Assembly: GCF_054482595.1 (NCBI RefSeq)
Contig: NZ_CM137008.1
Direction: 5' to 3' (one strand)
Length of the DNA stretch: 64,000 nucleotides
This document shows, piece after piece, positions 2,821 to 26,409 of the stretch. Position 1 is the stretch's first letter; each line of letters starts with the position of its first letter. The notes beneath the pieces were generated by a model that saw only the letters and a program-made list of their open reading frames with translations, was not told where the DNA came from and did not search any database. Made by a program: the position numbers and the translations under genes.

Positions 2821-4043
2821 TGGCACTGTTTTACTATCAGGCGCTGGAGCGTAATGGTCGCAAAACCAAAGGCATGATTGAGGCGGATTCCGCGCGTCAT
2901 GCCCGCCAGTTGTTGCGCGGTAAAGATCTCATTCCCATGCACATTGAAGCCCGGATGAATGCTTCGGCAGGGGGAATGTTGCAGCGTCGGCGACACGCAC
3001 ATCGTCGCGTGGCGTCGGCAGATCTGGCGCTGTTCACGCGCCAACTGGCAACGCTGGTGCAGGCAGCAATGCCGCTGGAAACCTGCTTACAGGCGGTCAG
3101 TGAGCAAAGTGAAAAACTGCATGTAAAAAGCCTCGGAATGGCGCTGCGCAGCCGGATTCAGGAAGGTTACACCCTGTCGGACAGCCTGCGCGAACATCCC
3201 CGCGTCTTTGATTCCCTGTTTTGTTCGATGGTGGCTGCCGGAGAAAAATCCGGGCATCTCGACGTGGTGCTTAATCGCCTGGCGGATTACACCGAACAGC
3301 GACAGCGCCTGAAATCACGTCTATTGCAGGCCATGCTCTATCCGCTGGTTCTGCTGGTGGTGGCAACGGGCGTGGTCACTATTTTGCTGACGGCAGTGGT
3401 GCCGAAAATCATCGAACAGTTCGATCACCTCGGACACGCGCTGCCCGCCACCACCCGCGCGCTTATCGCCATGAGTGACGCGTTACAGGCCAGCGGCGTT
3501 TACTGGCTGGCGGGATTGCTGGCGCTTCTGGTGCTGGGGCAACGGCTACTCAAAAATCCTGTTATGCGCCTGCGCTGGGACAAAACCTTGCTGCGCCTGC
3601 CCGTGACAGGGCGTGTTGCGCGCGGACTGAATACGGCGCGGTTTTCCCGCACCTTAAGCATCCTCACCGCCAGCAGTGTTCCGCTGCTGGAAGGGATTCA
3701 GACCGCTGCCGCCGTGTCGGCAAATCGCTATGTCGAGCAACAACTGCTGCTGGCGGCAGATCGCGTCCGCGAAGGAAGCAGTCTGCGCGCTGCACTGGCG
3801 GAGTTGCACCTGTTCCCACCGATGATGCTGTACATGATCGCCTCCGGCGAACAGAGCGGCGAACTGGAAGCCATGCTTGAGCAGGCAGCGGTCAACCAGG
3901 AACGGGAATTTGATACCCAGGTGGGGCTGGCGTTAGGGCTGTTTGAACCGGCGCTGGTGGTGATGATGGCGGGCGTGGTGCTGTTTATCGTCATCGCCAT
4001 CCTCGAGCCGATGCTGCAACTGAACAATATGGTTGGAATGTAA
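2820..4043 (+). CDS. gspF: Type II secretion inner-membrane platform protein GspF
   Basis: 407 aa polytopic protein following gspE; start overlaps gspE stop. Confidence 0.92.
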   Translation: MALFYYQALERNGRKTKGMIEADSARHARQLLRGKDLIPMHIEARMNASAGGMLQRRRHAHRRVASADLALFTRQLATLVQAAMPLETCLQAVSEQSEKLHVKSLGMALRSRIQEGYTLSDSLREHPRVFDSLFCSMVAAGEKSGHLDVVLNRLADYTEQRQRLKSRLLQAMLYPLVLLVVATGVVTILLTAVVPKIIEQFDHLGHALPATTRALIAMSDALQASGVYWLAGLLALLVLGQRLLKNPVMRLRWDKTLLRLPVTGRVARGLNTARFSRTLSILTASSVPLLEGIQTAAAVSANRYVEQQLLLAADRVREGSSLRAALAELHLFPPMMLYMIASGEQSGELEAMLEQAAVNQEREFDTQVGLALGLFEPALVVMMAGVVLFIVIAILEPMLQLNNMVGM

Positions 4044-4059
4044 TTTACGGAGTTATCAC

Positions 4060-4515
4060 ATGAATTCGTTATCCCGCACACAAAAACCACGGGCAGGTTT
4101 TACCCTGCTGGAAGTGATGGTGGTGATTGTTATTCTTGGCGTCCTGGCAAGTCTGGTGGTGCCTAACCTGTTGGGCAACAAAGAGAAAGCGGATCGGCAA
4201 AAAGCCATCAGCGATATCGTGGCGCTGGAAAACGCACTGGATATGTACCGACTGGATAACGGGCGTTATCCAACTACCGAGCAGGGGCTTGAGGCGCTGA
4301 TCCAGCAGCCAGCCAATATGGCGGACGCCCGCAACTACCGTACTGGTGGATACATTAAACGACTGCCAAAGGATCCGTGGGGCAATGATTATCAGTATCT
4401 CAGCCCGGGTGAAAAAGGGCTGTTTGATGTTTATACCCTGGGGGCGGATGGTCAGGAAAACGGGGAAGGCGCTGGCGCAGATATCGGTAACTGGAATTTG
4501 CAGGAGTTTCAGTAA
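4060..4515 (+). CDS. gspG: Major pseudopilin GspG
   Basis: Prepilin-type N-terminus GFTLLEVMVVIVILGVLA; chosen ATG at 4060 has CGGAG 7 nt upstream (ORF track begins at 4033). Confidence 0.9.
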   Translation: MNSLSRTQKPRAGFTLLEVMVVIVILGVLASLVVPNLLGNKEKADRQKAISDIVALENALDMYRLDNGRYPTTEQGLEALIQQPANMADARNYRTGGYIKRLPKDPWGNDYQYLSPGEKGLFDVYTLGADGQENGEGAGADIGNWNLQEFQ

Positions 4516-14759: not shown

Positions 14760-17606
14760 TCAGAAAGTCACATTCAGTGTGGCCTGACCGTTATAACCTT
14801 CAGCGCTGCTGCCGCTGACACTGTGGGCATAACCGGCCTGAACGCCCAGGGTGATATTTTCCCGGACACGGGCTTCCAGTCCGGCCTGCAGGTCCAGTGT
14901 CGTGCCATTCCGGGACGGTGAGAACGTCATGTTACTGCCGGCTGCGGCTGTACCCATGCTCATGTCCCCCCGGGAGCTGAAGGTGCGGATAACAGAAGGC
15001 TGTACCCACCAGTTCACCTGCAGTTCACGCACACTGTGTTTGGCACTGTCGCGCAGGGTGTCACGGGATGAGGTGCCTTTACCAAAGTTCATATCGTTGT
15101 GGCTGCCCAGACGGAAGCCGGCACGCACATGTTGTGCACTGCCATGCCCGAACTTCACATAACCGGCGTTATCCTGGCCGTCATCCAGGGAGAGTCCCTG
15201 CCAGGTGTACTGCAGTTGCGGCTCCAGCATCAGATTGTCAGTGATACTGAAGGGCAGACCGGTTTCCAGTGAGCCCAGCCAGCCCCAGCCCCGGGCGCGG
15301 AAGTCGTTATTGTCCGATGACGCTTTCATGCTGTGGCGGGTTCCCTGTGCCACAATGTCAGCCCACAGGCCGGAGGACGTGTGTGTCAGATTCAGGTATC
15401 CGCCCAGGCTGCCGGCATCATCCCGGACCGTGCCGGCGCGGGAACCGTCATCATCCTTAACATCAACGGAAGAATGGCCTGCAGCACCATATACCCCTGT
15501 CGTCAGAGACATACCGGCAACCTCTGTTCTCAGCAGGTCACCCTCCAGACGGACGAAGCCATAGCTGCCGCTGCTTTCCGGCGTGGCTCCACGGGCAATA
15601 CCGCCGTTGTTATCGTGACCGAGATGACCGCCCTGAATGCTGAGACGGACGCTGTTATTTTCACCGTTTACACCGGTCTGATGGCTGCGGGAGCCTGCCA
15701 GAATCCGGTCATAGTCCATTGCCTGTGTCAACATGGATGTATACAGGGGGACTTCAGCACGATAAGCATTTTCACTGCGCAGGTACCAGTCTTCATCGCT
15801 GTCACGGTTCAGGGTGTAGTTAAAGGCGCCGGCCTGAAGCGGGCGACTCAGAGCAAATGCACCTTCTTCTGTGGTGGCACCATTCTGTGCATCCACAACC
15901 CGGATACCCTGTCCGGAGGTTGCCACCCCGAGGTTACTGTTTCCGACATTTGTAAACGCAAGCCAGGTTTTGCCGGTTGCCTGACCACCATTAATCACCA
16001 GCTGGTCAGAGGCATTGCTGCCATCAAGGCGAACACGCATATTGATGGTGCCACCCTGACCGGTGAGGTTACTGGTGGTCAGTTTATGGAACGTTACCGG
16101 GGCGTCGCCTTTTGCAACAGCACGGCTCAGGACGGCATCCTGTGTCGTCTGATTATCAAAGCGAATCTCCCCTGCGTTAACAATATCGCCGGTACTGACC
16201 ACATCACCATTCAGTACCATGCTGGCGCCTTTACTGAGCTGTGTTCTGCCACTCAGACTTCCCCCGGCAGCCAGCGTCAGTGTTCCACGATGTCCGACAG
16301 TGGTGTTGCCAGCCTGTCCCCCGGCATTAACCGTAAAGCTGCCGCCATTTTCCAGCAGCAGGCCGCTGGCCTGACCGGATATGCCATCAATACTGAACTT
16401 ACCGCTGGCATTGGTCCCCTCAACAGTGGCACCACTGTCTGCAATCAGGGCACCACCGGATGTCATGGTGACACCTGTCGCCTTACCACCGGCAGACACT
16501 GCCAGGGTACCGCCGTCATCCACCCGTGTTTTCTGCGCTGAATGACCCTCCAGTACATCCAGACGACCGCCGGACTCCAGAACAACACCGTCAGCCTTAC
16601 CGTTTTCCACCGCGAAATTGCCCAGACGGTTGCTGCCGGTGACGGTTGCCGCCGTACTGGTGACCAGTGCGCCTCCCTGCTTCAGGGTGACATTCGTGGC
16701 TGTACCACCGGCGTTCACCTGCAGTTTGCCTTTCTGGTTAACGGTGGTGAAATCCGCCAGACCACCTTCCTTGATAATCTGCCAGCCGTCACTGTTCACA
16801 ACAGTGTCAGACGTTGTACCTCCGTTGTGCACATACTGGTACCCCCCATTCAGCGTGGTATCCAGTGCGTGACCATGTACCGTCTGGTCGCCGCCGGCAT
16901 AAACCACCGTGGTGTTTGCCACTCCGGTGGCTACCACAATCTGACGACCATTTTTATTGATGGTGGTACGTACGGCATCTCCGCGAACAAACTGTCCGGT
17001 ATCAGCATTTTCCGCATCCGGTCCTCCTTCTGCGCCGGTATTCACAACCGTGTCGGTTGCCATTGCGCCGGATTTGACGGCCTGCCAGCCCTTCTCATTA
17101 ATGACGGTACCCGTTGCAATCCCGCCTTCATGTACCCACTGCTCACCGCCGTTCAGAGTGGTGTTCACTGCCTGCCCCTGAAGGCTCTGTCCTCCTCCGG
17201 CACTGATAACCGTGTCTGAAACGCTTCCTCCGGCATTCACTCTCTGAAGACCACCACCGGTGACAGTAGTGTTGTTGGCGATACCGCCATTTTGTATCCA
17301 TTGTCCGCCGGTATTGGCCTCGTTATCCGGCCCATACTCCAGCCCGGTACTGATGGTCATTCCGTTGGCCGTACCGAGGACAATCTGGTTGTCATGATTT
17401 GTCAGTGTTCCGTCGTTCACGGTTTCTCCCGCCTGTACAACCGTGTCAGCAGCCAGTGCCGGGACTGATGTGACAGCAGCAAGAGACAGTGCAACCGCCA
17501 CACCGGCGCGTTTTCCCCGTGAGCGGGCCAGTTCGGAGGCCACCACCAGGGTGCCCGTAATGTGATTCCATACCAGCCTGTAGCTGGTGTTCAGATGTCG
17601 TTTCAT
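14760..17606 (-). CDS. flu: Antigen 43 (Ag43) self-associating autotransporter adhesin
   Basis: Start at ATG 17606 ([28 protein letters not shown]...); repetitive passenger domain and C-terminal beta-barrel ending ...GQATLNVTF. Confidence 0.92.
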
Positions 17607-17823
17607 CAGCTTTTCCTTACAGAGGGTGAATAAAAAAGCCGGTACCCACAAATGTGGATACCGGCAGGTACAAAACAGCATGGTCAGATAAAGTGGTTTT
17701 TCCCGGGCATAAATGCTTCCCTTCTCTCATCCGCCAGAGAAGTATCAGTCCGTTGTGTGCAATTCCGTTCTGCATGATGAAGAGATTCAGCTGCCTTTTC
17801 GCAGACCATTAACCACTATAAAC

Positions 17824-17859
17824 GATCGATAGTAACGATCGATACCTGTTTTATCGATC
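17824..17859. promoter_or_regulatory. Three clustered GATC sites upstream of the Ag43 gene (candidate Dam/OxyR phase-variation switch)
   Basis: GATC at 17824-17827, 17837-17840 and 17856-17859, about 220-250 bp upstream of the Ag43 start. Confidence 0.7.
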
Positions 17860-17977
17860 GTTTTATTCTATTAACGACAAGGCGGTCACGCAAGAGAAAC
17901 AGGAGGAGTATGAGGGGTTTGTGTCATGTTTTCAGTTGGTTAACGTAATGTTATCAGGCATTTCCCTGGCAGACTGT

Positions 17978-18850
17978 TCAGAAGAAAATCCAGTTCCATA
18001 CAGCGCGGGCAACAGAGACCACCGTGTCACGGACGGCACGCAGAACCGTGCGTGCAACAGAGGCAATACAGACGCTCTCCGCTGTGTCAAATATCCGGTC
18101 CACCGCACCGGTAAACTGTTCACGGGCCTGAGACCGGACAGATTCCGTGCGCAGCTCGTCCTGCAGGCGGGTCATCAGGGGACTGGCGGCATGGTCGGGA
18201 AGCGCTGTCATGAGCGCACTGACCAGCGTATCCAGTTCCCAGCCGGTGCGGGCCGATACGGCCACAACCGGATGTACGGGCCGGAACAGACGGAATACCG
18301 CCTCCGTTTTTTCGCGAATATTCTGTGCCTGTGCGGGAGAAGGCTGAATGCCGGCCATATCCCATTCATGGCAGGGCTCCGTTTTGTCGGCCTGCGTCAC
18401 CACAAACAGCACCTGCTGATGTCCCCGGTGCAGGATGTGTCGCCAGAAATACTCATCCACAGACAGGGCACGGTCATCGGCTTTAATCAGCCACAGTACC
18501 AGGTCAAGTTCAGGCAGAATGTCACGGTACAGGGCTTCATACTCTGCATCCCTGTCCCGGCTCTCGCCCACCCCGGGCAGGTCAGTGATAATCATACTGT
18601 GACCGTGGCCACTCAGACGGAAGCGCCGCACTTCCCGGGTGCCGGCGTGAACATCACTGACCGGGGTGACCTCCCCCTGAAACAGTGCATTACAGAGTGA
18701 GGATTTACCGGCCCCGCTTTTCCCCATAATGCCAATCACGGGTTCGTGACTGGTGAGTTTGCGCAGATGTTCCAGGATGTGACGGGAAAGTGAGTAAGGC
18801 AGGGAGGAGAGCGGTTTTTCAATTGCCTCAATGGCATCAGACGGATTCAT
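17978..18850 (-). CDS. yeeP: YeeP/YkfA/YfjP-family GTPase
   Basis: P-loop GKSGAGKSSL and DLPG motif; preferred ATG at 18850 (ORF track begins at 18913). Confidence 0.8.
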   Translation of the reverse strand: MNPSDAIEAIEKPLSSLPYSLSRHILEHLRKLTSHEPVIGIMGKSGAGKSSLCNALFQGEVTPVSDVHAGTREVRRFRLSGHGHSMIITDLPGVGESRDRDAEYEALYRDILPELDLVLWLIKADDRALSVDEYFWRHILHRGHQQVLFVVTQADKTEPCHEWDMAGIQPSPAQAQNIREKTEAVFRLFRPVHPVVAVSARTGWELDTLVSALMTALPDHAASPLMTRLQDELRTESVRSQAREQFTGAVDRIFDTAESVCIASVARTVLRAVRDTVVSVARAVWNWIFF

Positions 18851-19204
18851 ACATGTATTCCCGGTGAAAAAAGACAAAACCCCCGCACACCGGAAAGGTG
18901 GCGGGGGACTCACGGAGATAATATATGTCTGAAATTATTTGGAATGCAGGTATATGTGGCTGATACAGGTCTGAATCTAATCTGACAGTCCGCTCTGTGC
19001 CAGTAGCGGACGTTACTAACATAATTCAAGAAGATTAAAGTATTCCGGAAACGATTTTGTTAGAATGTTTTAATTATGTAACCAAGATACATTTTCTTAT
19101 GAGAGTATATGCGAGTTTTTATCTTATAATCAGAAGATTACAATCTGAACTTGTGATAGTAAAGTTACATAATTAATTATGTTAACATTGAAAAAATCAT
19201 AGGA

Positions 19205-19945
19205 ATGCTAGTGATAAAGCCTGAAATTACATCTCTATTCAAATACTGCCCTATCGGTAAGAATCAATTAAGTGCTCTTGCACAGCGGAAAATCTGGTAC
19301 TCAAAACCGGCAGGATTTAACGATCCTTTTGACACCCAATTTTATGTGAGAGGACAAAGGCATGTGTACGAACGGGAAATGGACTCTGAAAAATTATCAG
19401 CCATTTTTGGTGAAGATATGTCAGATGTAATGGTTTCCAAAAAACGTTCTCTTGATGAACTTTTGGACAGATTTAAAAGCGGTTTAGAAAAGTTAGGTAT
19501 TCTTTCACTAGCAAGCAGTAACAAAAATTTGCTGATGTGGTCGCATTATGCTTCTGAACATAAAGGTATGTGCTTAGAGTTTAAACGCATCGCCGGCACA
19601 GCCTTAGCAGATGATAAAATAACTAGGCCGATGAATTACAATGATAATTATCCATCGATACAGGCAAGTTCAATTTTAAATGAAGTCGATACATTATCTA
19701 ATAAAATTAGAATATTACATACAAAATCTAAACATTGGGAATACGAGCAGGAGTGGAGGCATGTAGTTGAGCAAGGTAATGAGTTACATCCTTGGCCCGC
19801 AGAATTAATTTCTGTTTATTTCGGCTGCAAGACAGATATGTCAGATATACATTTGGTAAGAAGTATAATTACGGACCCAAATGTTAATTACTATAAAGGA
19901 AATTTGTACAGTGATAAATTTGACATTTATTTTCAACCGATATAA
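19205..19945 (+). CDS. DUF2971-like protein (MWSHYA motif); function unknown
   Basis: 246-aa ORF in a visibly AT-rich segment; contains LLMWSHYASEHKG; family assignment from memory. Confidence 0.55.
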   Translation: MLVIKPEITSLFKYCPIGKNQLSALAQRKIWYSKPAGFNDPFDTQFYVRGQRHVYEREMDSEKLSAIFGEDMSDVMVSKKRSLDELLDRFKSGLEKLGILSLASSNKNLLMWSHYASEHKGMCLEFKRIAGTALADDKITRPMNYNDNYPSIQASSILNEVDTLSNKIRILHTKSKHWEYEQEWRHVVEQGNELHPWPAELISVYFGCKTDMSDIHLVRSIITDPNVNYYKGNLYSDKFDIYFQPI

Positions 19946-20090
19946 TTACGTAAAAACATATATACATTAACTAATGTTAAGTATTGTAAATACATCACGA
20001 TCGATTGAATGTCTGCTGTTCGCTCGCAGCGGACCTTCAGTTCATGTAACTTTTCCGCTTCGTACCAAAAGCGGACGTCAAAATGTATGT

Positions 20091-20438
20091 TCAGCTAGCG
20101 TAAGTTGAGCGTTTCATAATGATGTCTCTCTGCGGGTCTGACCCAACCTGACAAATATGCTCTCCAACCTCGGTAAACCCAAGCTTACGATAAAAAGAGA
20201 TTGCCCTTGGGTTATATTCCCAGACACCTAACCAGACAGGATCCGATCCCTTTGCCTCAAATTCAGCAAAGCACTTTTGCATCAGTGCTTGCGCAAATCC
20301 TTTACCATGGTAGGGCTCATCGACATACAGGCACAGAATTTCTCTGGCATAGATGCTATTGACACAGGGAGGAAACTCTTCCCACCTTAGTTGAGCGTCA
20401 ATTTGTGGCGAAAACCCATGAGTTAGAAATTCAATCAA
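20091..20438 (-). pseudogene. GNAT-family N-acetyltransferase fragment (N-terminally truncated)
   Basis: 115 aa with GNAT-like C-terminal core (YHGKGFAQALMQ...FYRKLGFTEVG) but too short for a full GNAT domain. Confidence 0.5.
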
Positions 20439-20528
20439 TTACAGGAAGGAAAAGTAAAGGAGGGGGTGGCTCTCTTTAGGAGAGCCATGAGTGGAAATGG
20501 ATATTAGAAGAAAGGAGTTGTTTCCACA

Positions 20529-21665
20529 TTAAAAATTAAGTTCATACCTATCAATTACACCATTTTTTATTCTGTAAATAACATTAGATGAAATTGACTC
20601 AAAGTAAACATACCCAACTGCTTGGATTATATTTATTAGCATGCAAGAAAATGAAACAATGAATAGTGGCAGCGAGGATGTGTTGTAGTTTACCAGGTAA
20701 ATAAATTCGCCATAATACAATGGCCCACACATTGCGAGTGCTAATGATATAAATAAAAAACCTTTTATTGCTTTAATTAAAAATATAGAGGCGTTTATTT
20801 GTTTTCTTATCTTTTCATCGCCTAAGAGATAAAGGTTGAAATCTTGAGATTTTGTTGTGTCCACTGAGAAGATATTAAGAATATGTGGGTATATCAATGA
20901 TATATCCTTTGTTTTCATAAGATTCATCATCTCTATTCTCCGCGTGACGAACAGTGAACCCAACCAAAAAACCATGAATACAGGCATAGCATAACTAGCT
21001 ATTTTGGCTATACTTATCAATGATACACTAGATGCCATGTCACCTATTTTAAATGGGATAATTAAGGTTGATTCTATGTTGACTATCTCTATCTTTGAAT
21101 TACTCTCATCTTTTATTTTTCCATCCAACCAGTTCATTGCATCATGATAGTTTGCGATTTTATCTTTTTCAGGAAGGGCCGATTCTATTTTATCCCTTAC
21201 AATATAGCCCACACTTGATTTTTCAATCTCTTTTTTCAACACATCGTACATAAAGTATTTTAACTCATTAATTGAACTCACCTCATCAAGGTCTATTTCA
21301 CGCAATCCCTCATTTATCATTTTTTTTCTAATGGAAAAGAATTCATTTTCTATTTCTGATTTATATCTTACTGTGTCCATCTCTGATTTATTTATTCTTT
21401 TTCGAAAGTCTAGAATATCAGATACGCTTTCATTAACAGCTGAAATTTGTGTTTCGATAAATTCTATTTTTCTTCTTTTTGTTTCAATTTGTTGTTTTAT
21501 ATCTTTGTATGAGGTTATTAAAGCAAATAGGTTTTGGCTGCTTAATGTAATTAATAAAGAGCAGGTGAGGAAACTAAAAATAACAACAACAATACTCATG
21601 TATAATAATCTATCAAATCTCTTTCCCAGTTCGTACAACCTATCCACTATTCTTCTCACTTTCAA
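20529..21665 (-). CDS. Membrane protein with N-terminal TM, central coiled-coil-like region and C-terminal TM cluster; function unknown
   Basis: 378-aa ORF in very AT-rich DNA; start uncertain (TTG 21665, GTG 21644 with GAGAAG upstream, or ATG 21599). Confidence 0.55.
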   Translation of the reverse strand: MKVRRIVDRLYELGKRFDRLLYMSIVVVIFSFLTCSLLITLSSQNLFALITSYKDIKQQIETKRRKIEFIETQISAVNESVSDILDFRKRINKSEMDTVRYKSEIENEFFSIRKKMINEGLREIDLDEVSSINELKYFMYDVLKKEIEKSSVGYIVRDKIESALPEKDKIANYHDAMNWLDGKIKDESNSKIEIVNIESTLIIPFKIGDMASSVSLISIAKIASYAMPVFMVFWLGSLFVTRRIEMMNLMKTKDISLIYPHILNIFSVDTTKSQDFNLYLLGDEKIRKQINASIFLIKAIKGFLFISLALAMCGPLYYGEFIYLVNYNTSSLPLFIVSFSCMLINIIQAVGYVYFESISSNVIYRIKNGVIDRYELNF

Positions 21666-22508
21666 AGGCGATATAGATAGGTTATATCATGCCTTCATCT
21701 TTTGAACTAAACAATCTATATCAGATAACAGTTCTCTTCGCAGTTGTGTCCCTACTCTTTGGTGGCCCGTAGGCTCCTGAGCTGGACATCGTGCGGGACT
21801 ACCTCACAGTCAATTGTAAGCAGTAAAGAGGAACGAGAACCATTCATAGAGCCTAACACACTAAATGCCGCATTGAATCCCACGACTCGGCACGATCAAC
21901 GTAAGATAATCGGAGCTTGCTGCATGGTGACAAATGGAAAATGTGAAGGTAAAGAAAACGACATTACTAACTGACGTTTGTATCTAACACTGGGGACAGG
22001 TCACCTTGAATCGATGGAAGTCTCATTATTCAGAAGCCGTGCTTCTCAGGGTTCTCCTGCAGTGGATAGTTTGTACGATTTGCTCCTCCGGACACTACGG
22101 GCCAGAAAAGTTGAAAATTGAGACTATGTACCAGGTGCCTCAACGTCCGCTCATCGCTCACAACGGACCTTCAGCTCAGCCGCTCCGGCCGCTTCATGCA
22201 ATGAATGTACGCAGCCAGTCAGAATATTAAGGTGCGGATTTCAGTTCACTTGTCAGCCCTGTGATGCAACAAGTTGCGGCTCCGGTTCGTGGGAGAGATG
22301 AAACGACGGTAGCTGAAGTTACTGAAATGAAGAATTCAGAGAGACTGAATGATATGCCTCACCTTTAGTGAATAGTGTAAAAACGGGAGACTCTCACCCG
22401 GGATTATCCACTCATGCTCAATGTATAATTTTCGTGTCCCTCACAGGTAAGGGCCGGATACATTTGTTGAGTACGCTGCAGAATTGGTAATCGGGGACCC
22501 TGCCGTCT

Positions 22509-22721
22509 TTAACTCCGGGTCTTATGCTGCTCATTTGCCACAAAATCCAGGTGCGCCTGCTCAATCATTTCATTCAGCATTTTTTTTGGGGGGACACCAC
22601 GACTTCGGGCAATACTTTCAAGCTGTTTGTGGATTTTTCCGGACAGTTTCAGCGGGACGGAACCATCAGCACGTTCATCACGCCTTTTTTGTTGCTCCCT
22701 GGCACTTTTCAGTTCATCCAC
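22509..22721 (-). CDS. Small putative ribbon-helix-helix-like protein (70 aa)
   Basis: Charged small protein with VPLKLSGKIHKQLESIARSRG pattern; overlapped by plus-strand ORFs, so coding status is uncertain. Confidence 0.3.
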   Translation of the reverse strand: MDELKSAREQQKRRDERADGSVPLKLSGKIHKQLESIARSRGVPPKKMLNEMIEQAHLDFVANEQHKTRS

Positions 22722-24429
22722 AATATAGCTGCTCTTCTCGCATTTTTGCCGATTTTAAAAATGCGAACAAAACATCCGTACATGATGTACAGATTAAACT
22801 GCCAGGGACTGGTGTCAGAAAACCTCCGGTTAGCCTGCTCTTTCCGGAATGTGCCGGTTATGAAAAACCGGAAATTCAGTCTCTGTTGTAAGATGTACCC
22901 TCTGATACTACGTTTTCGTTTTCTCTGTGTATTTAACTCACTGTATTTATTTTCTTTTTAAGCCTGACTGATATTCTCCGGTCATAGTGTGCCTGATAGA
23001 CATCCCGTAACCTTCTCATTTTTATATAAAAATACCTGCACTGTCTTCAGCGCATCTGTCTCCTTTAAGTAAAAAATGTTTTCACGTATTGCTGTAAATT
23101 CATTTTAAATCAGTATGTTATCCTGATATTGCTGTCTCCTGGTTTGATGCGTAATCGTTCTGCCTTTCTGGATGATTCTGGTGCTTCCGGGTGCATTCTC
23201 CTCTGCACATGCAACAGTTCGTCATCGCCACGTGCCCAAAAGCATATAAAAACGAATCGAATCTGATCGTTTTTTCAATCGTTTTTCACAGGAATTTCGT
23301 AGGGTGTTCTCCGCTATAGCCTCCATATTTGCTGTCTTTTTCTTCATAAATCGTATGCAATATAACCAGTCTGTCAAGACATCTTCCCTGCTGTTGAGGT
23401 GACGATCTCATTTCTGGTCTTTTCCGGGAGAGAGACGGTCAGATGAGCGAGCCGGATTTACTGCCAGAGGTACTCCCCGCGGCAGAAAATAGTGCTCCTG
23501 TTTCCGCAATCCGGGATCGGCAACGTCCCATGGTTAATGCCACTTGCAGCGTCAGGCACTGCAGGTTTACGTCGTGATCTGATTTCTTCTGCACTTATCC
23601 CGATCACGGAAGTTCCCCCTGCGCAGACATCGGTTCCTGCCGACATCTCACAATACCGCCAGGCAGTCATGCAGTAACACCCGCAATGCGGTCTGCGGTT
23701 TTAAGCGCACTCTCCTGTATTCAGTGCACCGATAATGCATCATAGAAAGTCCGGGGGGAGTTACTGAATGTCTGTTAAGTGGTGCCGTGGGTGGAGACTG
23801 CTTACTTTTCCACAGTAACTGCAGTCATTCAGGATGCTCAGGAGAGAATATGTCAACGCCACGGGCCGGGCCATTTTCATGCCAGCCAGGATATTTTCAA
23901 TATTGATGCTGTCTGCTTTTCACCATTTCATCCTCACTGACTGATGTTGTATTTTTGTGCAGCACTACAGATTTGCGTTTCTCTTTTAACTGGTCACGCT
24001 CTCCTTTGATATTCAGCGTGGTTGAGTGATGCAGCAGTTGATTCAGGATTGCTGTTGCCCTGCAACCACCATATCAACTTCTTCCCGGCATGCCGGCGCT
24101 GGTATCCAGGCCGGGTTTCGAAGTGAAGCGTTCCTGACGGACTCATTGATATCCGGGCCGGATGTAGTCATGCAGCATGGAACGTCTACCCGTATACACT
24201 GACGGCGTCCGGCCGTGTACATCTCTTCCGCGGTTCAGGGAGCGCTGTCGCCATGTACTTATTGTCACCAGGAGAGGCATGTACCGCAGCATGCCAGCTC
24301 AGCAGTGACAGGATGCCCTTAAGACATCCGTCATGGCTCAGTATGACGACGCCCCCGCTCTGCAGGTGAGCATGCGGGGCCGGGAGCAGCATTCCCGTAT
24401 TTTGCCGCACCTTCCGGAAGCAACCGGCA

Positions 24430-25047
24430 TCAGTTACGGTTATCGTCAACCGTTGTGCGGTATGCCAGGAGCACGTACTGATCCATCAGATCCGCCAGTG
24501 CTGCGTTCTGCTTCTGACGGTCGATGATCCATTCCCCCAGCTCTTTTTCTGATTTACGTTTCAGGTTCTCCGTCCAGTCGTCAAGGCTGTTTCCGGTCAT
24601 TAAATCAAGCCAGCAAAGCCAGACCAGTTTGAGGCGCAACTCAGTGCCACCAAACTGACGGAAGAGGCTGATCAGTTTATTTGCCAGAGAACGCCGCCTC
24701 AGACGTTCACATTCAGACAGCAGAATGCCTTCCAGCATCGGATGATGAACCAGCAGATGTTCGCTGGTGCATAAGTTCACCACCAGATCATCATCCAGGG
24801 GCGGCGTGGCCCGTTTGTCAGAGCCATAAATCAGCCGGTGCAGACTCCGGGGGACGATGGCAATCTCCGGTTTTTCACCATTGAATGACACCCACCCGGG
24901 CGTCAGATTATGGAAGTAGTGGATATTCGGATGACATACGCCCCAGGATACGGCGTGCCGGGTGAAGCCGGTCAGCCATTTCTGGTAGCTTTCGTGGAGC
25001 AGCTCGTAACGGGTCTGATACTGTGGTTTCATTTTCATATTCCTCAC
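24430..25047 (-). CDS. Hypothetical protein (205 aa) downstream of alpA
   Basis: ORF co-oriented with the AlpA-like gene; not recognised. Confidence 0.5.
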   Translation of the reverse strand: MRNMKMKPQYQTRYELLHESYQKWLTGFTRHAVSWGVCHPNIHYFHNLTPGWVSFNGEKPEIAIVPRSLHRLIYGSDKRATPPLDDDLVVNLCTSEHLLVHHPMLEGILLSECERLRRRSLANKLISLFRQFGGTELRLKLVWLCWLDLMTGNSLDDWTENLKRKSEKELGEWIIDRQKQNAALADLMDQYVLLAYRTTVDDNRN

Positions 25048-25125
25048 GGGGGATAACAGGCAGCAGAACGCCGCCGGCAGGCCGGAGATTGCGTCTGCTG
25101 TGGGTGAAGGGGCAGTGGTTAAAAA

Positions 25126-25335
25126 TTACGGACGGGACTGTGCAATACGCGCCTGCAGCCAGGCTTCCACTTCACTTTTCAGCCAGCGGGAGCTGCGGCC
25201 AAGTTTGATGGGAGCCGGAAAGGCCCCATCCTTGATGAGCTTGTAAAACCACTTATCGGTCAGGCCGGTCAGCTGAGTGATAAACGCCATATCGACCATC
25301 TGGTCATCCATCAGCGAAACTGGGGGGGGGGTCAT
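25126..25335 (-). CDS. alpA: AlpA-family phage/island transcriptional regulator
   Basis: 69 aa with AlpA-type HTH (ITQLTGLTDKWFYKLIKDGAFPAPIKLGRSSRWLKSEVEAWL); codons 2-5 lie within a C10 homopolymer. Confidence 0.8.
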   Translation of the reverse strand: MTPPPVSLMDDQMVDMAFITQLTGLTDKWFYKLIKDGAFPAPIKLGRSSRWLKSEVEAWLQARIAQSRP

Positions 25336-26409
25336 AAAAATCTCCTCCGGATGTTGTTAATCTCAACCGGCGTTGATGATGAAAACAACGCACCACCTTC
25401 ACCGGCATAACAACCGGGGAGAAACGTAAAAAATCAGTAGGGGAATATTCCTGCCAGGAGAGAAACGGTTGTGTACAGGCAATACAGGTTGTCTGTTTTG
25501 TCAGTGAAGCCGGTATAAACGGAAGATGATTTTGTGTTGCCGGAATATGGGATGGTATTTTGTCGTGACGGAATCAGTATTTTCAGTGATGATTATTACT
25601 GCGCAGGGGAGTACCGGAGAGAAACCACGCCCTGTACCTGCCAGAGCGGTGGTTTGTATTGACTGAACGGAAGATAAAGCGAGGTAAACACTGTTGTGGT
25701 GAGCGGAGAAGACTGAGATTATTCTCTGTAATTACAAACAACAGTGATCTTATCCGGTTTTTTTACCGTTACGGGTTTCAGGGGATCAATTTTATAGACC
25801 GGGGTAATGACCACGCCGTAATTTATGGAGAAAAGCGGGATCCAGCAATAAACGTCAGGATATTTCTGTGTCTCCGGAATACCTTTTGTGCCAGAGGCCA
25901 TCAGATCTTTAACGCTCACGAAAAATGACTTCCGCAGATCAAAAAAGTACTCGTTATATATCACATCCTTTGCCAGCAGGATGACTGCATTACCAACAGC
26001 CGATTTTACAGGTGTTTCATCAGGTGGATTATCGTGATTGTATATTGTTCTTTCTATATAAATAAAACAGGCATATTTCGTCTTCTCCCCGGATAGTTGC
26101 ATCTGGTATTCGCAAATGTCTTTGATATACCGACTTTCAACCCTTCCAATCATCTTATCCCGGCGATAGTGTCTTTTATGTTTCAGCGCGTACAGAACAC
26201 CATTTGAACTGTCAAACTCCAGGACACTTCTGGTGAAAAGTTTGTTTTCCCAGATCTCCAGACAATACTTCTCTGCACTGACGACATTGCGTTTGTGGGG
26301 AAGATTCCGTTGATACACTCCATTTAATAAGCGTGACTGCAGTTCGCCTGCAAGTTGATAGTAACAGTTAATGTCATTAAGGACAGGTGCTGTGGCGTTG
26401 GATTTGCCC

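Follow-up and report, generated by a model that had tools for sequence, protein, structure and literature searches.

What do the repeats that frame the AT-rich DNA between about 20.0 and 22.2 kb of this stretch (64,000 nt of contig NZ_CM137008.1, RefSeq assembly GCF_054482595.1; hereafter, the window) delimit? The region is 100% identical to Escherichia coli O157:H16 strain Santai. The initial annotation, made from the letters alone, noticed imperfect direct repeats of about 50 bp at 20015-20068 and 22149-22200, as well as a shorter related hairpin motif near 18985-19010, and proposed that the repeats bracket about 2.1 kb of independently acquired DNA, a mini-element, or mark recombination scars. 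We found that the repeats belong to a family of 24-bp sites of two types, A and B, which border gene cassettes arranged in arrays, and that the window carries a two-cassette array of this kind. From sequence comparisons, we consider it probable that the sites are core sites for site-specific recombination with exchange in their centers, and that a small, 200-amino-acid (aa) tyrosine recombinase encoded in related arrays is the likely enzyme.

The two repeats are real. Over the first 30 positions of the segments first delimited, 25 are identical, and a repeat search of the window aligned 20008-20044 with 22142-22178 at 30 of 37 positions (81% over 37 nt). By chance, 4.7e-5 ungapped pairs of this quality would be expected within 18500-23500 (binomial, local base composition), and the best pair in ten shuffles of that interval reached only 24 to 26 of 37. 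Exact copies of CGGACCTTCAG occur in the 64-kb window at 20030 and 22164 only. The hairpin motif was likewise borne out: GTCCGCTCTGTGCCAGTAGCGGAC lies at 18988-19011, with zero occurrences expected by chance. A 24-mer consensus allowing up to three mismatches matches only 18988 (minus strand), 20011, and 22145 in the 64 kb, and gave 0 matches in 100 shuffles. Each ∼50-bp repeat is a composite of a B site, a spacer, and the first bases of the next A site; the CCGCTTC that the two segments share is the start of an A-type site located 18 nt downstream of each B-type site.

Altogether, the window contains four strong 24-bp sites (GTCCGC-N12-GCGGAC) of the two types, plus one decayed site, in the order A1, cassette 1, B1-18 nt-A2, cassette 2, B2-18 nt-(A3):

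18977..19014, plus strand: A1, an A-type site with core 18988-19011, GTCCGCTCTGTGCCAGTAGCGGAC and then GTT; the left end of the array.
19015..20007, plus strand: cassette 1, AT-rich cargo with one gene.
20008..20034, plus strand: B1, a B-type site with core 20011-20034, AAT plus GTCTGCTGTTCGCTCGCAGCGGAC; the left repeat of the initial annotation.
20035..20052, plus strand: the junction spacer between B1 and A2, 18 nt, CTTCAGTTCATGTAACTT.
20053..20079, plus strand: A2, a degenerate A-type site with core 20053-20076, TTCCGCTTCGTACCAAAAGCGGAC plus GTC; the left border of cassette 2.
20080..22141, minus strand: cassette 2, a mosaic of remnants.
22142..22168, plus strand: B2, a B-type site with core 22145-22168, AAC plus GTCCGCTCATCGCTCACAACGGAC; the right repeat of the initial annotation and the right end of the variable region.
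22169..22210, plus strand: a spacer-like 18 nt, CTTCAGCTCAGCCGCTCC, and then decayed A3 at 22187-22210, GGCCGCTTCATGCAATGAATGTAC; conserved island backbone.

B-type sites have the center TCGCTCAC, followed by CTTCAGCTCAG, while A-type sites have the center GTGCCAG; an A site approximates an inverted B site, flank included. Thus, A1 is an inverted, diverged copy of B2 and its flank (18977-19014 versus 22142-22179; 38 nt, 74% complementary). B1 departs from the B consensus at two positions, A2 from the A consensus at three, and B2 from its consensus at none or one, depending on the pattern used. A3, with seven mismatches, is not significant by itself (∼17.5 such matches per shuffled window); it is placed in the exact 18-nt register expected after B2.

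This map replaces the idea of one mini-element bracketed by direct repeats: the repeats are two members of a four- to five-site array that bounds two cassettes, each cassette sits between inverted sites (A...B), and the direct repeats correspond to B sites from successive junctions. The whole variable region is accordingly 19012-22144, not 20015-22200. What stands of the earlier proposal of recombination scars or independently acquired DNA is the boundary role of the repeats and the foreign, AT-rich nature of the cargo. GC content is mostly 0.28 to 0.35 in the 2.1 kb between the repeats and >0.4 at both ends of that segment; over the whole interior it is mostly 0.28 to 0.39, with 0.4 to 0.48 near the 20.0- to 20.4-kb junction and near B2, and it is 0.52 to 0.62 in the island backbone to the left.

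The sites extend well beyond the window. Each comprises two inverted 7- to 8-bp arms (GTCCGCT/AGCGGAC) around an asymmetric center of ∼8 bp, 24 bp in all; in sites written GTCCGCT-N(8-10)-AGCGGAC, the distance from GTCCGC to GCGGAC is 12 nt in 55 of 69 occurrences. A scan with the B-site pattern against one genome per bacterial species gave genuine matches in ∼20 genera of Enterobacterales, including Citrobacter, Enterobacter, Kluyvera, Leclercia, Pantoea, Erwinia, Rahnella, Serratia, Hafnia, Trabulsiella, Cedecea, and Kosakonia. The count in unrelated GC-rich genomes is near chance; we discarded matches in Streptomyces, assorted metagenome-assembled genomes, and the like, which are about as many as chance predicts. 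Two matches inside alphaproteobacterial recombinase genes were also set aside as coincidental: they fall within coding sequence (WLKVRGERED), and these recombinase genes do have GTCCGC-type sites nearby. Because genuine sites recur between unrelated genes in ∼20 genera, the possibility raised at the outset that the repeats are parts of one duplicated pseudogene is excluded.

Arrays read A-cargo-B-18 nt-A-cargo-B. In enterobacterial loci, the B-18 nt-A unit stands between cassettes of one to three unrelated genes, in runs of up to six or more units, and LysR regulators paired with an SDR or OYE oxidoreductase are the most common cargo. The 18-nt B-to-A spacing was found in 73 of 81 strand-wise regular-expression matches, which represent 48 distinct units when one strand is chosen. 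These 48 units align without gaps at 77% mean column identity, with the consensus AAC GTCCGCTnnTCGCTCACAGCGGAC CTTCAGCTCAGTnAnCTn GTCCGCTnnGTGCCAGnAGCGGAC GTT, in which CTTCAGCTCAGTnAnCTn is the spacer; conservation is much higher in the inner arms, both centers, and the spacer than in the outer arms. All sites are co-oriented in 39 of the 42 loci that have at least two confident sites. The unit was found in 1,689 E. coli genomes, at one to five copies each, and the matches listed all lie outside annotated features. The CP4-like island backbone in which the window array is embedded is not a general feature of such arrays, GTPase or AlpA genes being present in only 2 of 43 non-E. coli loci. We also came across a typical three-junction array of the enterobacterial type on a contig labeled as uncultured Veillonella sp. 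(L069); this contig is probably mis-binned, or else it records a transfer event.

Are the sites selected hairpins or protein-binding sites? Single sites can fold as single-stranded DNA (−9 to −20 kcal/mol; z scores of −2.9 to −4.7 for intact units). Across the 48 units, covariation did not exceed that of shuffled controls under either a two-hairpin or a one-long-hairpin model; stem positions 7 and 8 at first seemed to co-vary, and a formal count on the same units gave no covariation, so we rejected a selected RNA or single-stranded DNA hairpin. Since compensatory changes are lacking, the arms, conserved as sequence, look like protein-binding sites: we regard them as candidate binding sites rather than selected hairpins. 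That each site can fold, and that the sites are always intergenic, would also suit RNA or transcription elements (terminators, mRNA stabilizers, or small RNAs) or a repeat of the REP/BIME type. We consider this highly improbable: besides the lack of compensatory changes, a terminator scan calls none of the sites, which are flanked by CTTCAG or GTT with no T tract; a search of 17500-26000 against Rfam 15 (E ≤ 1) gave no match at the sites; and the orientation of the sites relative to neighboring genes varies. REP/BIME extragenic palindromes, which are associated with a RAYT transposase, are dispersed in hundreds of copies per genome, and the PeSL elements of T4-type phages are described as mobile regulatory cassettes. 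Like both of these, the present units are paired, inverted, palindromic intergenic units flanking shuffled genes; unlike them, they number only one to five per E. coli genome, are clustered in arrays, have no promoter or terminator motifs, and have no RAYT that we could see.

Homology breaks off within the sites. Across strains, B2 varies with the cargo in its first nine positions (the 5′ arm and 2 nt more), as GTCCGCTCA, GTCCGCTTT, GTCCGCTGT, or TTCCGCTCC, with the endings ..TTT and ..TGT among the four, while TCGCTCACAACGGAC and the flank remain constant with the backbone. One Citrobacter cassette found in two genomes (loci L039 and L043) has the same spacer and A site in both, and different B outer arms and different neighbors. 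A cassette that encodes TonB-dependent iron uptake retains its distinctive A 3′ part, AAAGGCGGAC, both where it is first in the array (E. coli S2) and where it follows a junction (Nissle 1917). Huaxiibacter chinensis (L075 1-1075) and E. coli Nissle 1917 (L007 9589-10662) share a cassette encoding the HEC-08 defense candidate at 99.07% identity over 1,075 nt, and this identity stops immediately after the A-site center. The window and plasmid A of E. coli M6 have in common a LysR 3′ end together with the B outer arm. Finally, a 78-nt cassette in Citrobacter youngae (L029 2274-2351) lies between two junctions and keeps its own B outer arm; because its last 36 nt plus B outer arm equal the 3′ end of the full cassette at 3758-4436 in the same array, it appears to be a deletion remnant. 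These comparisons show outer arms that seem to travel with the cargo and inner arms that seem to travel with the junction, pointing to exchange in the ∼8-bp center. Such breakpoints are the signature expected of a tyrosine recombinase core site and the opposite of that expected of a transposing unit with terminal repeats. Other generic features of such core sites are present as well: an arm-center-arm structure, a fixed N12, and arms conserved without covariation.

A candidate enzyme is encoded within some of the arrays. A junction containing the gene for a 200-aa protein with a Phage_integrase domain is present in E. coli Nissle 1917, 2013C-3033, and Eco_23-2667 and in loci of Enterobacter and Citrobacter. 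The gene is preceded by a B site (outer arm, TCGCTCAT, and a degenerate inner arm, AAGGGAC), which lies ∼45 nt ahead of the start codon; after the stop codon comes a hairpin (GGGCTGC...GCAGCCC), and TGTGCCAGnnGCGGAC, the A center plus outer arm, follows it directly. In effect, the gene takes the place of the 18-nt spacer. Wherever both flanks of a gamma-type locus were readable, the gene had a B site on one side and an A site or half-site on the other; this holds for an initial six loci, the E. coli locus L100, and 15 of 15 IMG/VR loci with differing neighboring cargo. A sixteenth IMG/VR locus is truncated at the start codon and has only the downstream half-site. The pattern is weaker in Idiomarina, with only the downstream half-site, and in Proteus, where both sites are degenerate. 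Nearly all nearby sites (23 of 24) are co-oriented with the recombinase gene, and identity among copies of this module extends from at or just before the B center to the A center or its 3′ arm. Homologues at 57 to 65% identity (IMG/VR loci L124, L126, and L128) have downstream the hairpin AGCGACGG...CCGTCGCT and an altered half-site, CCGGCCAGAAGCGGAT; the site thus appears to co-vary with the enzyme among these homologues.

The catalytic motifs LR, K, HSLRR, LLGH, and RY can be read in the recombinase sequence. It reaches no curated family cutoff: XerA scored 58 bits, XerC 50, invertase models 18 to 25 (cutoffs of ∼222), and the integron integrase model TIGR02249 15.9 (cutoff of 265); no relative of solved structure was found in PDB at E ≤ 1e-3. 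Its family has at least 7,998 relatives at E ≤ 1e-10 and is strikingly conserved across Gammaproteobacteria. In size, in matching only the Phage_integrase domain, and in its presumed action on short inverted repeats, it resembles the FimB/FimE DNA invertases (∼200 aa), from which it differs in its low scores on the invertase models and in having no invertible promoter segment; no single cassette was seen in both orientations among the loci compared. The recombinase gene has further locations: in Proteus mirabilis (L103 7000-13300), recombinase and cassettes lie beside mutS-rpoS and the cargo ends in a B site, and in Idiomarina sp. X4 (L101 10001-17534), the gene is just after the gcvP terminator and 7 kb of PhoPQ-like plus EptA cargo ends in a B site. 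It is found on plasmids, too: the protein encoded at NC_016817.1 131282-131881 (Pantoea ananatis LMG 5342) is 100% identical to the chromosomally encoded protein of E. coli Nissle 1917 (WP_001305361), arguing for a very recent intergeneric transfer. We rejected the idea that this is a phage gene, as no phage record contains a relative above 60% identity; the IMG/VR matches are therefore probably islands. Among 5,426 complete E. coli genomes, 928 carry the recombinase gene.

The arrangement of this module bears on whether the B-recombinase-A unit is instead an insertion sequence-like element with terminal inverted repeats, the 66-bp B-18 nt-A units are derivatives resembling miniature inverted-repeat transposable elements, and the cassettes are merely the DNA between insertions. 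The A site is indeed an inverted copy of the B site, the short unit shares its ends with the 0.75-kb gene-carrying unit, and the copies, though few, are dispersed over chromosomes, islands, and plasmids. Nevertheless, conservation is lowest in the outer arms, where such an element would have its tips; these arms move with the neighboring cargo, and the conserved recombinase module ends inside the sites. Free palindromic targets (GTCCGCT with a short loop) were not found in the enterobacterial loci, with the exception of one Pantoea locus (L056); three other short-loop matches are in non-enteric genomes. Moreover, units within arrays are co-oriented, solitary A or B sites occur at array ends, and no empty target alleles were found in E. 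coli. We therefore think that transposition of this sort is quite unlikely to account for the units.

It is somewhat easier to imagine, yet still unlikely in our judgment, that the conserved junction of ∼48 nt has another role, for example as a platform for a nucleoid or regulatory protein or as an insulator, with cassette shuffling a by-product of RecA-mediated recombination and the recombinase a passenger. In its favor, the outer arms are far less conserved than the inner arms, centers, and spacer, and inner-arm pairing is 93.5% versus 77 to 82% for the two hairpins; most arrays have no recombinase nearby; and the window array occurs in E. coli only as a block. On the other hand, 40 to 60 bp at ∼80 to 90% identity is a poor substrate for RecA, and this explanation does not account for co-orientation in 39 of 42 loci or a fixed N12 geometry. 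That the gene is always found between B and A where flanks are readable, and that distant homologues come with an altered site, would be hard to explain for a passenger.

Integrons are among the closest known systems, and we considered whether the units are integron attC sites and the arrays clusters of attC sites lacking integron-integrases (CALINs), acted on in trans by IntI. The units recall attC R″ and R′ boxes in their ∼72-bp size, imperfect palindromy, and array organization, and in their end triplets, AAC being enriched ahead of the unit and GTT behind it (columns 6 to 8 and 75 to 77 of the alignment). As in integrons, co-oriented, imperfectly palindromic sites of 60 to 70 bp separate exchangeable cassettes of unrelated genes, including defense genes; a tyrosine recombinase gene occupies a fixed position by a simpler half-site; and arrays often persist without the recombinase. 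However, crossovers here fall at the centers of two 24-bp subsites, B and A, rather than at the G|TT of the R′ box, and beyond the AAC/GTT triplets there is no RYYY/RRRY-type complementarity in the 48-unit alignment. Because covariation is absent, we see no evidence or sign of recognition through single-strand structure. The cassettes are often multigenic, with their own regulators, and in either orientation. The linked recombinase is not IntI: it has 200 aa and a Phage_integrase catalytic domain only, it scored far below the integron integrase cutoff, as noted above, and its gene lies inside the junction and is transcribed in the direction of the array. On these grounds, an identity with attC sites is very unlikely.

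Returning to recombination by the linked enzyme, its course might be as follows. The 200-aa tyrosine recombinase would bind the arms and exchange strands in the center of like sites, B with B and A with A; where present, its gene would stand in for the 18-nt junction spacer. With exchange in the centers, each outer arm would stay attached to its cargo and each inner arm to the junction. Cassettes, or circular intermediates carrying them, could then be gained, lost, or swapped between arrays on islands, chromosomes, and plasmids, with a cassette presumably being excised from between its inverted, unlike sites. Site anatomy, array layout, taxonomic spread, breakpoint positions, and linkage to the recombinase gene are direct results of the comparisons; the reaction itself, the pairing of sites, and any circular intermediate are inferred.

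In E. coli, we could place the window array within its island. The setting is a CP4-44-like island, in which an Ag43 autotransporter gene and a YeeP-like GTPase gene (17978-18913), both on the minus strand, lie to the left, and AlpA and further backbone to the right; according to the annotation of the Santai locus and four other strains, the array sits between the YeeP-like GTPase gene and the AlpA-side backbone. This is a variable segment between YeeP-like GTPase/Ag43 and AlpA, as in hotspots of the CP4-44/CP4-57 type. A megablast search of 18700-22500 against the 5,426 genomes found the flanks in >4,100 and the interior in 154. To the left, homology with the backbone ends at ∼18940-19021 across thousands of genomes, and the longest left-flank matches end at 19012-19021; to the right, homology begins at 22142-22145 in >4,000 E. 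coli genomes. Because flank homology stops there, A1 and B2 are the edges of a variable hotspot.

Other strains have different cargo between the same sites, and the array left ends of H10407, 2013C-3033, and S2 also carry the A1 site. H10407 has ETEC_3214 and a hypothetical gene with a B-like site between the two; 2013C-3033 has two hypothetical genes, a small integrase pseudogene, and a restriction endonuclease; and Nissle 1917 has the HEC-08 defense candidate, the small integrase, ETEC_3214, a hypothetical gene, and a 5.7-kb TonB-receptor/ABC operon, with B-18 nt-A junctions separating its cassettes. This last operon, a complete 5.7-kb TonB-dependent receptor and ABC iron-uptake operon, forms a single A-to-B cassette in Nissle 1917 and S2 (L005/L006 2281-8024). 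An extra 1.9 kb in E. coli strain 167 looked like an additional cassette; it is in fact IS100 inserted between cassette 2 and B2 (L099 5800-7601).

Several observations weigh against recombination at these sites by the small recombinase. The empty site without the 2.1 kb, which the initial annotation proposed looking for, occurs in none of the 5,426 genomes; nor did we find in them the left flank joined to the right flank (an array-less allele), the predicted product of deletion between B1 and B2, or, when each cassette was queried alone, a single-cassette allele. The window cassettes almost always co-occur, cassette 1 being present in 169 and cassette 2 in 180 of the 5,426 genomes (≥99% identity); they behave as one fixed block within E. 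coli and so give no sign of recent independent movement there. About 83% of E. coli genomes lack the recombinase gene (928 of 5,426 carry it), and island flanks with sites are found in >4,100, so most arrays are not currently serviceable in cis. A tblastn search with the small recombinase as the query, which need not detect IntI, revealed no tyrosine recombinase in the window; weak matches near 62 kb correspond to LysR and IS66 genes. What ties the enzyme to the sites is association. Because the arms are nearly invariant, breakpoints can be placed only to within ∼8 to 10 bp, and some of them might instead have arisen by homologous recombination within the 48 conserved nt of the junction. Lastly, excision of a cassette between inverted, nonidentical A and B sites lacks a clear route, a problem shared by pdif modules (see below).

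Cassette 2 of the window contains the following genes and remnants:

20091-20438, minus strand: C-terminal fragment of a GNAT protein, covering only Pfam profile positions 60 to 116 of 116.
20529-21665, minus strand: a 378-aa membrane/coiled-coil protein with no family match.
22005-22121, plus strand: remnant of a LysR-family regulator gene, the last 38 codons.

The GNAT fragment adjoins A2 just as an intact 172-aa GNAT gene adjoins an A site in E. coli Eco_23-2667 (L100); the A2 3′ arm and the gtcaaaatgt that follows it also adjoin this intact cassette (L100 3974-3997). From 22005 through B2, the window has 90% nucleotide identity (150 of 167) to the LysR 3′ end and B site of E. coli M6 plasmid A, where that LysR gene is part of an intact A-to-B cassette with genes for a hydrolase, AzlD, AzlC, and LysR. 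We also noticed an 18-nt inverted repeat (94% complementary) between the start of the 378-aa protein gene (21631-21648) and the inside of the LysR remnant (22061-22078), possibly left over from the rearrangement by which cassette 2 arose. The single gene of cassette 1 (19205-19945, plus strand; GC content of the cassette, 0.31 to 0.39) encodes a DUF2971 protein (Pfam E = 3.6e-11) that matches the PADLOC candidate defense family PDC-S31 (E = 2.5e-58). Since it has no recombinase gene, A2 and A3 are degenerate, B2 has an arm mismatch, genes in cassette 2 are truncated, and the cassettes co-occur as a block, the window copy looks like a decayed array that no longer recombines.

Two features of the surrounding backbone deserve mention. 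Between the Ag43 and GTPase genes, 17625-17861 on the minus strand matches the Rfam IS102 RNA (74.6 bits, E = 2e-11), the only match in our Rfam search; it probably represents the small RNA that CP4-44 is known to carry at the corresponding position. On the right, the backbone gene at 22509-22721 (minus strand) encodes a 70-aa remnant, with no family match, of a 382-aa protein that is intact elsewhere (L003 8368-9516); beyond it, up to ∼24400, the Santai annotation shows AAA-ATPase fragments, and other strains have IS21 fragments as well.

In layout, the arrays parallel the pdif (Re27) modules of Acinetobacter plasmids, which are mobilized via XerC/XerD-type sites. In both systems, modules lie between two inverted core sites, with alternating orientation and with cargo alternating with short linkers (here, the A...B grammar of the window and of 39 of 42 loci), and identical modules are found in different contexts with homology ending in the sites. 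Unlike in pdif modules, however, the sites described here have 7- to 8-bp arms and an ∼8-bp center, with no resemblance to E. coli dif (11-6-11); each junction contains two sites, 18 nt apart, instead of a single shared one; the linked enzyme is a dedicated small recombinase and not the host XerC/XerD; and the sites are found on chromosomes, islands, and plasmids of Enterobacterales. The arrays thus resemble integrons in outcome and pdif modules in layout, and they have the defining features of neither. We found no earlier description in literature searched by site sequence, protein accession, and keywords, the coverage of which was incomplete; one candidate paper, on tmRNA islands, proved to be unrelated. 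Our tentative proposal, which we put forward with less assurance than the nature of the sites themselves, is that the arrays represent an undescribed cassette-exchange system of Gammaproteobacteria, in which a dedicated 200-aa tyrosine recombinase and paired 24-bp A/B core sites would move cassettes across genera. The cassette shared at 99% identity by E. coli and Huaxiibacter, and the recombinase common to Nissle 1917 and the Pantoea plasmid, lend it support.

For the window, this means that the segment at 19.0 to 22.2 kb is a two-cassette array that no longer looks active, and not a transposon. The junctions are unannotated in RefSeq yet easily searched, making them a ready marker for delimiting accessory modules. 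If the proposal is correct, defense, iron-uptake, and LysR-regulated metabolic cassettes would have been moved between chromosomes, island hotspots, and plasmids by a second cassette-capture system, unrelated to integrons, in Enterobacterales and beyond. Such a system would account for the filling of one defense/cargo hotspot of the very common CP4-like islands of E. coli, as well as for movable islets of LysR plus enzyme genes and for the presence of identical cassettes in different genera.

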